Below are positions 1,951-5,343 of a DNA stretch of 40,000 bases, one piece after another. Below the pieces are notes generated by a model. It had not been told where the DNA came from and did no database searches. It was given only the letters and a program-made list of their open reading frames with translations. The stretch is from Peptostreptococcus sp. D1. Its GTDB lineage: Bacteria; Bacillota; Clostridia; Peptostreptococcales; Peptostreptococcaceae. A program made the translations under genes and the position numbers. How positions within the stretch are numbered: the first letter of the stretch is position 1; each line of letters opens with the position of its first letter. The stretch covers positions 192,582 through 232,581 of the forward strand of contig NZ_FONP01000002.1 of the NCBI RefSeq assembly GCF_900112955.1, read 5' to 3'.

Positions 1951-2066
1951 ATACATCCTCCATTTTCATTTCTTTTGATTGAATCAAAAAAAGACCACAA
2001 CTTTTCTATTTTGTCATGGTCTTATCTATATTTTTTCATATTAAATTTTATCTTTTGTTTATTCTA

Positions 2067-2091
2067 ACTTCTGTTCATTTTGAGCAGAAGT
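2067..2091. repeat. 25-bp imperfect palindrome, copy 2 of 4 (arms extend to 2062..2096)
   Basis: acttctgttcattttgagcagaagt. It lies inside the last 11 codons of the MTase (LTSAQNEQKLE). Confidence 0.8.
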
Positions 2092-2324
2092 TAGAAATTC
2101 ATCTTTTATTCCTGCCATAATATACTCCACGCAGGGCAGTGCTATCGCATTTCCAAGTGCTTTATATCTTGCACTGTCAAGTATGATATTTCCATCTACC
2201 CCATACTTTGTATAGTTATCAGGTAGTCCCATCAGTCTTTCACATTCTATCGGCGTTAAATATCTAATAAATCCCTCCTCTTCTTTTCCGTCCTCCCAAT
2301 ACGCAAACATTGTAGGATTTGATG

Positions 2325-2825
2325 CTAATAGGGCCTAAAAAGGCTCATTTGGCTTTCCGAAGCTGTTTCTAAAAAGAGTTTTATTTCTTCTTTTTGCTCC
2401 TCCTCGCATTTTTCTATCTTGAAAGGGTCTGATGTTTGGTATTTTCCTCCCTGCTTTATCAGAATGCCTTCGATTGGACTTGGTATCCTTATCTTCGATG
2501 CTTCTGATAATCTCAGTATTTTCGAGCAGGTTTTCGGGCTTATATAATATTTTGTGGGAACGAAATCCTCCAAAATCGCAGACAATAAATATTCTCTTTC
2601 TTCTTTGTAAGAGCTTAGGCTCTCCGAAATATTGGGCGTCCAAGACTCTCCAAGAAAACTCAAATTCTCTCCCTCGCACCACTCCTGCATTTGCCCATTT
2701 AGACTCAGGCATTGGAAGGCAGGTGCTACTGAAGGATTCGAGGACGGTTCTAAAATCCAACCTATCTCCCGATACAAAAGCTCCCATGACGTTCTCCCAA
2801 ATAGCGAAAGTTGGATACTCCCCAT
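2325..2825 (-). CDS. 166-codon ORF overlapping the MTase in a different frame on the same strand (possible overlapping gene; uncertain)
   Basis: Open for 501 nt in AT-rich DNA. GAGGTG (2834-2839) lies 8 nt upstream of its ATG. The product contains LGESWTPNISES...LLSAILEDFVPTKYYISPKTCSKILRLSEASKIRIPSPIEGIL. Confidence 0.3.
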   Translation of the reverse strand: MGSIQLSLFGRTSWELLYREIGWILEPSSNPSVAPAFQCLSLNGQMQEWCEGENLSFLGESWTPNISESLSSYKEEREYLLSAILEDFVPTKYYISPKTCSKILRLSEASKIRIPSPIEGILIKQGGKYQTSDPFKIEKCEEEQKEEIKLFLETASESQMSLFRPY

Positions 2826-3206
2826 TTGTTACACACCTCATTTCTTTAATCAATCGTATCGCTTGATAAAAAAGAGATGATTTTTCTCCACGAAGTCCTG
2901 TTAAATCTCCCGCTTTTGAAAAATTTTGACAAGGAGAACCGAATGTGATGATATCCACCGGTTTTATATCTTTTGCCTTTAATTCGGTTATGTCTCCTAA
3001 ATGCTCTACATCAGGAAAATGTCTTTTGGATATAGATATTGCATTTTTATCAATTTCGCTTGCCCATACCGTTTTTATCCCTACTTTTCTTGCCGCTAAA
3101 GGAAATACTCCTATTCCATCAAATAAACTTCCAAGTGTTATTTCTTTTAACTTACATCACCTCTTTTCTATTTTCATAATATCCTTATATATGCTCCCTT
3201 TTTCTA

Positions 3207-3231
3207 ACTTCTGCTCATTATGAGCAAAAGT
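3207..3231. repeat. 25-bp imperfect palindrome, copy 3 of 4
   Basis: acttctgctcattatgagcaaaagt, upstream of the MTase. Its left flank ttctaa is identical to that of copy 2. Confidence 0.8.
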
Positions 3232-3317
3232 CGGAGGACTTCTTCCTTTTGCCTTCATTTCATCATTCCTCCCTTGCTCTTAGCATAAAAAACAAGATTT
3301 GTATTTATCTTAGGTCC

Positions 3318-3467
3318 TTACTTTTGACCGATATACATTTTGCGAATTTCTTCCTTCTTTTTTAGATGTTTTAACTTTTGATTTAACAACCTAATCCTAT
3401 TTTTTATCTGTTGCAATTTCTTTTGTTCTTTTTCAATTCGTATTTCTGTTCTTTCAAGCTCAGTCAT
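3318..3467 (-). CDS. Small 49-aa coiled-coil protein (hypothetical)
   Basis: My own translation: MTELERTEIRIEKEQKKLQQIKNRIRLLNQKLKHLKKKEEIRKMYIGQK, with a weak AAGGAA upstream. It fills the TraG-MTase gap and is below the length cutoff of the ORF track. Confidence 0.4.
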   Translation of the reverse strand: MTELERTEIRIEKEQKKLQQIKNRIRLLNQKLKHLKKKEEIRKMYIGQK

Positions 3468-3504
3468 TCTTAAATATTCCTTTCCAAAATTTAATCCAAT
3501 AGAT

Positions 3505-3529
3505 ACTTCTGCTCATTTTGAACAAAAGT
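3505..3529. repeat. 25-bp imperfect palindrome, copy 4 of 4
   Basis: acttctgctcattttgaacaaaagt, abutting the TraG stop codon (3529-3531). Confidence 0.8.
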
Positions 3530-5343
3530 TATCCCTCATCATAAATTTCCACTAAAGTTACTTGCATATTTTCTTTTAGATTAACTTTGTCTTTTCTCTT
3601 TAAATATTTTTCTATATCAAAGGTATTTTTCTTATTGTAATCGGAAAGCTGTTTGTAGTTCTTATGCTTGGTTATATCAAACTTATCACTGAAAAAAGGT
3701 CTTGCTCCTCTTATTTCCAAGATACACTTTCCTCCGTCCATCACTTTCAGTTCATCTCTGCTCATCAGTTCCTTTCCAAGCTTTTGATAGTTTAGTCCAA
3801 ACGATTTTTGATTTGATCTTGTTTCCGATGTGTTGTAAAGGTCTATGGTTTCTTTTCCCAAGTTTTCGGACAGCTCCTTGATAGTCGTTCCTTCTTTTCC
3901 GCCTAAAAATAGCTCGCTATCACAATTGCCTAGAATCGTGTCGGCATGGTCTTTATAGATTGCTTTTAATTGACTTTTTGCTTGAAGGATAATACTTGCC
4001 GATATTTCTCTGGAACGAATGGTTGCAATGAGTTTTTCGAACTTCGGTATTTGTCCAATATTGCTAAATTCATCAAGTAGACATCTCACATGAACAGGTA
4101 ATCTTCCACCATATACATCATCTGCCTTATCACATAAGAGATTAAATAGCTGAGTATACATCATTGCCACTACAAAGTTAAAGGTGTCATCGGTATCGGA
4201 TATGATAATAAAGAGGGCTGTCTTTTTATCCCCTATGGTGTCAAGTCCCATTTCATCATATTCCATAAGGTTTCTAAGTTCCTCTATATCAAATGCCGCA
4301 AGTCTTGCCCCACATGATATAAGAATCGACTTGGCAGTTTTTCCGGCGGCCAATTTGTATTTTCTATATTGCTTGACAGCAAAATGATTCGGCTTTTCTT
4401 TTTCAAGTGCATCAAAGATATAATCTACTGCATTTTTAAAGTTTTCATCTTCTTCTCTCACTTCGCTGGCATCAATAAAGGCAAGTAGACTTTCAAAATT
4501 TTGTTCTTCCTCCGGTGCTTCATAGTATAGATAGCCTATTAAGGCTGTATAATACAAGCGTTCCGCTTTACACCAAAAATCTTCCGTAGATTTTTCTCCT
4601 TCGCCTTTTGTATTTGCCATAATCGTCTGTACAAGTTTTAGTATGTCCTTTTCACTCCTTAGATAGGCAAAGGGATTATAGTGCATGGATTTTTTGAAAT
4701 TTATGGTGTTTAGCACTTTAATATCATATCCGTTTTTCTCTAGCATCTTTCCGCACTCAACAAGAACGGTACCTTTAGGATCGGTTACAACATAGGATGA
4801 GTGCATTTGCATCAAATTGGGCTTTAAGAAAAATCGGGTCTTTCCACTCCCGGATCCTCCTACTACAAGCACATTTTTATTACGAGCAAATTTAGGATTT
4901 TTAGGTCTTGAGTTCATTGTAAGGCTTTCCGTATTAGTTAAAAGTATGTTGTTTTCAAATTTTTCATCCAAATATGGCTCAATGTCTTTAGAACTTCCCC
5001 ATCTTGCTGAGCCATATTCTACTCCTTGGCGAAATTTTTTTGCATTTTTCTTTTTTTGATAAACAATAAGCCAAATAACTGCTGAAAAACAAATACCTGC
5101 AAATAAGTCATCTATATGAAATGATGGCAGATAAGACAGTGTTCCTATATCAGATAAAGCTACTATCATCTTATCTACATAATCACCACCTACATAACTG
5201 TTTATATGCTTTGAAAATATATTCGCCAGATAAAAGAAAAAGAGATAAGGTAAGTTTTTAATTACAAACTTTTTCTTATCTCTTATGTGAAATATATTTT
5301 TTATATCTTTTAGTATTTCTTTTACAATCTTCGTCTTTACCAC
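3529..5343 (-). CDS. Type IV coupling protein (VirD4/TraG family)
   Basis: 604 aa with N-terminal hydrophobic helices, Walker A VVGGSGSGKT and LLDEFSNIG (Walker B region). The GTG start at 5343 is uncertain because the SD sits directly against it. Confidence 0.9.
   Translation of the reverse strand: MVKTKIVKEILKDIKNIFHIRDKKKFVIKNLPYLFFFYLANIFSKHINSYVGGDYVDKMIVALSDIGTLSYLPSFHIDDLFAGICFSAVIWLIVYQKKKNAKKFRQGVEYGSARWGSSKDIEPYLDEKFENNILLTNTESLTMNSRPKNPKFARNKNVLVVGGSGSGKTRFFLKPNLMQMHSSYVVTDPKGTVLVECGKMLEKNGYDIKVLNTINFKKSMHYNPFAYLRSEKDILKLVQTIMANTKGEGEKSTEDFWCKAERLYYTALIGYLYYEAPEEEQNFESLLAFIDASEVREEDENFKNAVDYIFDALEKEKPNHFAVKQYRKYKLAAGKTAKSILISCGARLAAFDIEELRNLMEYDEMGLDTIGDKKTALFIIISDTDDTFNFVVAMMYTQLFNLLCDKADDVYGGRLPVHVRCLLDEFSNIGQIPKFEKLIATIRSREISASIILQAKSQLKAIYKDHADTILGNCDSELFLGGKEGTTIKELSENLGKETIDLYNTSETRSNQKSFGLNYQKLGKELMSRDELKVMDGGKCILEIRGARPFFSDKFDITKHKNYKQLSDYNKKNTFDIEKYLKRKDKVNLKENMQVTLVEIYDEG

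Follow-up and report, generated by a model that had tools for sequence, protein, structure and literature searches.

Judged from its sequence, one stretch of conjugative-element DNA within the window (the 40,000 nucleotides of Peptostreptococcus sp. D1 analysed here) encodes two proteins, and the methyltransferase frame is damaged in this copy. The first frame (frame A) corresponds to a C5 cytosine methyltransferase; the second (frame B) is shifted by +1 relative to frame A and lies wholly inside it (3156..2059). A genuine overlapping (dual-coding) gene was among the explanations offered by an initial sequence-only reading of this DNA, and this option is now strongly supported for frame B by an open +1 frame in 76 of 76 homologues, suppression of synonymous variation, a fixed ATG and ribosome-binding box, and the codon changes that separate the window from a close relative (G009). 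Our preferred interpretation, to which we assign a probability of about 0.75, is that frame B represents a genuine nested protein-coding gene, the product of which most likely acts as a second chain together with the frame-A protein.

Organization of the two frames in the window

The sequence-only reading had placed all C5-methyltransferase motifs in a single frame and in the correct order, which was borne out by profile searches: positions 3150..2338 of frame A matched PF00145 (E 3.8e-35) and TIGR00675 (E 1.2e-30), and positions 2310..2062 matched PF00145 (E 2.5e-8). Motif IX is present in frame A (..YLTPIECERLMG..). The individual features it had listed, i.e. the GAGGTG boxes, the TTA, TGA and TAG codons, and the 33-codon and 166-codon ORFs, had likewise all been located correctly on the minus strand (Table 1).

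Table 1. Coordinates of the features of the methyltransferase locus in the window
Feature	Position	Strand	Basis or remark
Frame A, C5 cytosine methyltransferase (PF00145)	3156..2059	minus	motifs I, IV (PCQ), VI (ENV), VIII (Q.R.R), IX and X in order
Frame A, first piece (motifs I-VIII and short variable region)	2338..3156	minus	PF00145, TIGR00675
Frame A, second piece (motifs IX-X)	2059..2334	minus	PF00145
In-frame ATG (3177..3175) and five codons (MKIEKR in all), then TGA (3159..3157)	3157..3177	minus	sequence
In-frame TAG splitting variable region from motifs IX-X	2335..2337	minus	private to this genome
Frame B, nested +1-frame gene, 166 codons	2325..2825	minus	ATG 2825..2823, stop TAG 2327..2325
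GAGGTG ribosome-binding box of frame B, 8 nt upstream of ATG	2834..2839	minus	sequence
Conserved C-terminal domain of B, about residues 75-125, LSAILEDFVPTKYYIS onward	2451..2603	minus	codon changes, family identity, hhalign
Palindromic element of ~33 nt (16-bp arms, 3-nt loop)	2059..2097		3' end of methyltransferase gene
Further palindrome copies	3199-3231 and 3497-3531		three matches in all, none in shuffles

An uninterrupted ORF with a usable start, as expected for a functional one-chain enzyme, was not found in frame A, owing to the TGA, TTA and TAG codons. The TTA (3150..3148) is located 7 nt past a GAGGTG box (3163..3158), at the position that is homologous to the ATG start of relatives; in one of these (L131), the codon corresponding to the TTA is an ATG start. 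Further upstream, frame A is closed by the TGA (3159..3157), six codons past an in-frame ATG, and the 33-codon ORF at 3258..3157 was shown to occupy this same frame. Since a 92%-identical relative (P0001) carries W at the position of the TGA, the simplest history is a nonsense mutation, from TGG to TGA, in a gene that had an N-terminal extension. At the TAG (2337..2335), four consecutive bases differ from those of G009, which reads P-T at this point. The second piece of frame A contains an 83-codon ORF with an ATG start (2310..2059) and motifs IX-X, for which no obvious ribosome-binding box was observed upstream. Because of the TGA at codon 7 and the TAG ahead of motifs IX-X, a one-chain enzyme could not be made without read-through. 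A genome-wide change of code, by which TGA would specify an amino acid, was considered unlikely, as translation with table 11 leaves the long ORFs nearby uninterrupted.

G009, which belongs to another species of the same genus, harbours an ungapped copy of the locus with 93.7% DNA identity. It shares the TGA and the TTA, does not contain the TAG, and is open for 365 codons in frame A and 170 codons in frame B. Assembly errors, also proposed in the sequence-only reading, are unlikely for the TGA and TTA, as both are shared by this independently assembled genome of another species, and are possible for the TAG, which is found in this genome only. The short-form subgroup is represented by three DNA sequences; in one of them (G231, locus L017) the gene possesses an ordinary ATG from which frame A is intact for 354 codons, with a frame B of 173 codons.

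Comparison of the window with G009 in the regions flanking the B ORF revealed 29 synonymous and 8 nonsynonymous changes when read in frame A (p 5e-12), versus 2 and 34, respectively, when read in frame B. Over the B ORF itself, the synonymous to nonsynonymous counts were 16:10 for frame B (p 4.5e-5) and 7:18 for frame A (p 0.39, as for neutral sequence), and within the conserved domain of B (2603..2440) they were 9:2 for frame B and 4:7 for frame A. The second piece of frame A (2059..2334) displayed 15 synonymous changes and a single nonsynonymous one. These codon changes indicate that B is better constrained than A in the overlap, with A still being constrained outside of it.

The flanks of frame A are still under purifying selection despite the early TGA and the presence of TTA in place of the ancestral ATG, which suggests that the TGA either is recent or does not abolish expression (e.g. 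through leaky read-through). The earlier suggestion of a decaying methyltransferase holds in part, in that frame A does contain two nonsense codons; the purifying selection on its flanks relative to G009 (29:8) is at odds with it. The TAG may either have inactivated the enzyme or have turned it into pieces resembling those of the three-piece relatives described below.

The start region of frame B is embedded in coding sequence of frame A, with the box and ATG overlying the KEMRC..NG stretch directly ahead of motif VI, and the bases of GAGGTG (2839..2834) encoding part of KEMRC. At the other end, the bases encoding the C-terminal domain of B specify the tail of motif VIII in frame A; B itself does not contain motif IX. 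When synonymous codons were permuted with the frame-A protein and codon usage kept (20,000 trials), the chance of a +1 frame being open over the 166 codons in the window was 1/20,000 (5e-5). The local increase in GC content (0.41-0.44 at 2400-2850 versus ~0.3 nearby) and the two antisense ORFs on the plus strand (2432..2866, 144 codons; 2632..2880, 82 codons), previously raised as a caution, are present as described; these ORFs cover the dual-coded stretch and are open in G009 too. They appear to be incidental and not to represent a third gene, as antisense frames exhibit a median of 53-59 open codons across the 76 long-form homologues.

Constraint on the nested frame among homologues

To compare the locus across genomes, 80 loci (48-100% identity) were retrieved from one-genome-per-species contigs with an intact 615-residue methyltransferase homologue as the sole query. 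These loci were derived mostly from Clostridia, and also from Bacilli, Negativicutes and some other bins, and 76 of them possess recognisable motifs VI-VIII. In each of these 76 intact genes, the corresponding region contained an open +1 frame of 129-181 codons. The ATG of B was located 26 nt ahead of the W of WENV in 74 of the 76, and B ended 139-166 nt past motif VIII. The window fits this layout, with the ATG (2825..2823) 26 nt ahead of the W codon (2799..2797) and a GAGG box upstream. Across the same span, the four other alternative frames exhibited median open runs of 42-59 codons, with at most one of 76 reaching 120 codons, and distant one-chain methyltransferases of related genomes displayed 2-28 open codons there. 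Whole-gene synonymous permutation of long-form genes gave a median per-gene chance of openness of 0.06; as this chance is not tiny for a single long-form gene, the argument from openness rests on its occurrence in 76 of 76 genes, which are related to one another.

Synonymous variation was analysed among 27 sequences sharing <80% identity, using codons for the same residue and an expectation specific to each pair and residue. Outside B, the ratio of observed to expected variation in frame A was 0.99-1.19 in every 15-codon window. Across A residues 105-240, the successive ratios were 0.56, 0.99, 0.65, 0.72, 1.02, 0.49, 0.37, 0.24 and 0.29, i.e. seven of the nine windows of the B span were reduced to 0.24-0.72 of expectation and two were at ~1.0, and the ratio returned to 1.12 at the stop of B. 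The sequence-only reading had proposed examining whether the shifted frame is systematically open in homologues and whether synonymous sites are unusually conserved; both were observed, the former in 76 of 76 genes and the latter down to a ratio of 0.24.

At the GAGG box, the Arg codon was AGG in all 27 non-redundant homologues, compared with 13% elsewhere in the same genes, and the Asn/Asp codon that provides the AT of the ATG of B ended in T in 27 of 27, compared with 62% elsewhere. From these codon frequencies, the box and ATG of B are fixed by synonymous codon choice in frame A. At the level of amino acids, conservation of B was found in its C-terminal part: the mean pairwise identity over A residues 215-240, which correspond to the last 25 codons of B, was 0.71 for frame B as opposed to 0.36 for frame A and 0.36 for the +2 frame, and over A residues 195-215 it was 0.76 for frame A and 0.79 for frame B. 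The amino acid sequence of the N-terminal half of B was no better conserved than that of the +2 frame.

Possible role of the nested product

B can be divided into an N-terminal part of ~75 residues, which overlaps motifs VI-VIII, is only kept open and is predicted to be disordered, and a C-terminal part of ~50 residues, which forms a small, strongly conserved, basic and helical domain. Consistent with this division, an AlphaFold model of B exhibited pLDDT values <50 for residues 1-80 and of 73-84 for residues 90-130, the latter consisting of helices. The C-terminal pattern of the family (..LS.IL...VP.KYYLS.K.C..IL..) is represented in the window by LSAILEDFVPTKYYISPKTCSKIL, and the basic part GILRRA..RGK.LP has diverged in the short-form subgroup to which the gene of the window belongs.

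Searches of Pfam and NCBIfam with B gave no match, nor did a sequence search of the PDB with B or a search of the PDB with a profile of B only, and searches of plasmid and phage DNA identified no close relative. A phmmer search of 1.84 billion cluster representatives with the 166-residue B returned 261 matches at E<=1e-3, of which 84 were at E<=1e-10. Some of these represent B-like proteins of ~130-250 residues, and others are proteins of 300-490 residues in which a B-like N-terminus is followed by in-frame target-recognition modules and motifs IX-X. A motif that the sequence-only reading had linked to hypothetical proteins on conjugative elements proved to be real, the proteins concerned being the nested ORF or its fusions. 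In public records, B alone is labelled 'hypothetical protein' in close relatives in which the main frame is broken, and a protein atlas contains unnamed B clusters from Bacillota and tailed phages. Comparison by hand showed the motifs of B to be +1 readings of frame-A motifs (LFGKT over IWENV, and SWTPNIGE over LDAQYWG), and similarity alone therefore proves nothing.

In one-chain C5 methyltransferases, an L.DIL..V..KYYLS segment is located 25-40 residues past motif VIII (loci L009-L014). Frame A of the present family does not contain an L.DIL..KYYLS segment, and B contains ..LSQIL...VPEKYYLS... As B resembles the post-motif-VIII segment that frame A lacks, it is probably a second subunit of the enzyme. 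An hhalign comparison of B with six one-chain enzymes produced one match, in which B residues 72-101 aligned with the post-motif-VIII segment (P 7e-4, probability 26%). A profile that included the fusion proteins matched methyltransferases in the PDB through motifs IX-X only, along with a weak 5-bit match to the post-motif-VIII segment of Dcm. The AlphaFold model of one fusion protein (P0072, arranged as B-TRD-IX-X) was confident only for the C-terminal helices of B and for motifs IX-X. VIA-align fold searches with the B and P0072 models returned nothing above Z 4, and the sole methyltransferase row (3qv2, Z 3.0) was level with noise.

According to the mechanism we propose, B would be translated from its own box and ATG inside frame A, just ahead of motif VI. 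Its N-terminal ~75 residues would merely be open, with the C-terminal ~50 forming a helical domain that matches L.DIL..V..KYYLS, and B would be a second chain bound to the frame-A protein, like the nested beta chain of M.EcoHK31I. In the window, B is intact and frame A is interrupted by the TGA, which is common to G009, and by the TAG, which is specific to this genome.

B may instead be a real nested protein, overprinted on the methyltransferase gene, that serves the conjugative element independently of methyl transfer, whether as a small regulator that binds DNA or as a factor for establishment or anti-restriction; we regard this as possible though unlikely. Purifying selection acts on B in both this genome and G009 despite a frame-A nonsense codon at position 7, and because B is under selection in a lineage with so early a TGA, it may function apart from the enzyme, provided that the TGA is not leaky. 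In addition, P0001 does not contain motif IV and retains the C-terminal part of B in frame, the conserved domain of B is basic and helical, and the annotation of close relatives lists B alone, as a hypothetical protein. These points have to be set against the occurrence of B only inside this methyltransferase clade, its repeated in-frame fusion to TRD and motifs IX-X, the alignment of its motif with a one-chain structural segment that frame A lacks, and the selection still acting on the frame-A flanks in the same lineage.

It is considerably less probable that translation does not begin at the start of B in unsplit genes, and that the frame is kept by toggling between one-chain and split forms or by ribosome shifts from A to B. 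Such a scenario has to contend with an ATG and GAGG box that are held constant by synonymous choice in all 27 sequences, with a frame that runs open from precisely this ATG in 74 of 76 genes, and with three-piece forms in which B remains an independent ORF closed by its own stop; moreover, selection for future toggling would be an implausible force. In its favour, one-chain and split forms both occur, even at 90% identity (P0158 compared with the window), and the N-terminal half of B is not conserved in amino acid sequence. The most improbable of the alternatives is that the methyltransferase is simply decaying, with the alternative frame open by chance and the stops or TTA being assembly errors. 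Two nonsense codons in frame A, the lack of an ATG at the homologous start, the restriction of the TAG to this genome and the higher G+C content of the stretch compared with its surroundings are what would be expected in that case. A fortuitously open frame, as once suggested for the window, is nevertheless rejected by the permutation result (5e-5) and by 76 of 76 homologues being open in the +1 frame and in no other, to which may be added the suppressed synonymous variation over the B span, the TGA and TTA in common with G009, and the 29 synonymous versus 8 nonsynonymous changes in the frame-A flanks.

By analogy, the closest precedent for the nested B is M.EcoHK31I. In this alpha/beta C5 methyltransferase (Lee, Kam & Shaw 1995, as described in PMC2836561 and PMC3404938), the beta chain is read entirely from a second frame of the alpha gene and contributes motif IX; PMC3404938 in addition reports M.AquI to be a two-chain C5 methyltransferase. 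What M.EcoHK31I and the present locus have in common is a second polypeptide whose coding sequence falls entirely within the methyltransferase gene, in another frame of the same strand. In contrast to M.EcoHK31I, where motif IX is absent from alpha and supplied by beta, frame A retains motifs IX and X here. The nested product furthermore differs in possessing an L.DIL..KYYLS-like segment and in overlapping motifs VI-VIII, and the present family is found on conjugative elements and phages rather than in a type II restriction-modification pair. M.AquI is resembled by those relatives (L112, L114, L121, L130 and L179) that are split into an alpha part with motifs I-VIII and a beta part with the variable region and motifs IX-X, although ~125 codons of the beta ORF overlap alpha in the +1 frame, and most members of the family are unsplit, with only the nested piece kept. 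With enzymes of the Dcm, M.HaeIII and M.HhaI types (L009-L014), frame A shares motifs I, IV, VI, VIII, IX and X in the usual order, whereas these enzymes carry L.DIL..V..KYYLS in cis and have no long +1 ORF (2-28 codons). In the literature searched, with most subscription journals and REBASE outside its scope, no description of this nested ORF was found.

Gene arrangements and genomic setting

A metagenome scan identified 45 unsplit genes with a nested B, and at least six split genes in which alpha consists of motifs I-VIII (~235 residues), starts at its own ATG and ends just past the overlap. In the split genes, beta comprises B, TRD and motifs IX-X in a single ORF. Three-piece forms were also observed (L122, L125, L160 and L170); in these, B has a stop of its own and motifs IX-X are encoded by a further ORF. 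Fusion proteins of the B-TRD-IX-X type occur in many distinct versions, and in P0158, a member of the window's own cluster at 90% identity, B is fused to the IX-X part. From the one-, two- and three-piece forms and P0158, B behaves as a module of the enzyme that is either free or joined to the target-recognition half. Two other fusions were encountered: in L024 (G041), A residues 1-165 are joined in frame to B residues 50-134, and in P0001 the motif I region is fused in frame to B residues 37-166, with motif IV being lost. These fusions could represent broken genes or alternative products.

On a wider scale, we consider the odds to be about even that C5 methyltransferases of a large clade, found on conjugative elements and phages, are multi-chain enzymes, with the L.DIL..KYYLS segment (normally in cis past motif VIII) being supplied by a gene of ~130 codons overprinted in the +1 frame on motifs VI-VIII, and with lineages switching between one-, two- and three-chain forms through frameshifts. 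If so, B would rank among the longest and best conserved of the bacterial genes known to overlap another on the same strand; to our knowledge, long same-strand overlaps with solid comparative support are very rare in bacteria. Annotation pipelines forbid long same-strand overlaps, and the nested gene is called only when the methyltransferase frame is broken, upon which it is named 'hypothetical protein'. The nested B may also account for the commonness of 'frameshifted' methyltransferase genes on such elements. If B is a subunit, one component has been missing from the expression and interpretation of an abundant methyltransferase family of mobile elements, in which many members contain long arrays of target-recognition modules. 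The hundreds of diverged copies would furthermore provide a clean natural system in which to study how constraint is shared between two frames.

The gene in the window is part of a conjugative element, and its neighbours encode a T4SS coupling protein, DUF3801, an IstB-like ATPase, RepA_N, SSB, Maff2 and TrbL_2. At two loci (L005 and L006), the long-form methyltransferase is preceded and slightly overlapped by a gene of 411-425 residues, the product of which we take to resemble a fusion of a ParB-like domain with an N6/N4 DNA methylase; the short form in the window does not have this neighbour. Methyltransferases of the family presumably often adjoin such a ParB-type N6 methylase. The same genome was shown to harbour a second, intact long-form gene (L189; G000:C21, ~70.6-72.1 kb) of 496 residues, which is located ~120 kb from the window gene and carries its own nested B of 131 codons. 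Another intact member of the family is the gene of Asaccharospora irregularis DSM 2635 (L049).

The copies of the palindromic element bracket a small ORF (3467..3318) together with the methyltransferase gene, and copies are present in G009 too. This element supplies the ..NEQKLE endings of both frame A and the upstream 33-codon ORF, and it could function as a terminator, a processing site or a cassette boundary.
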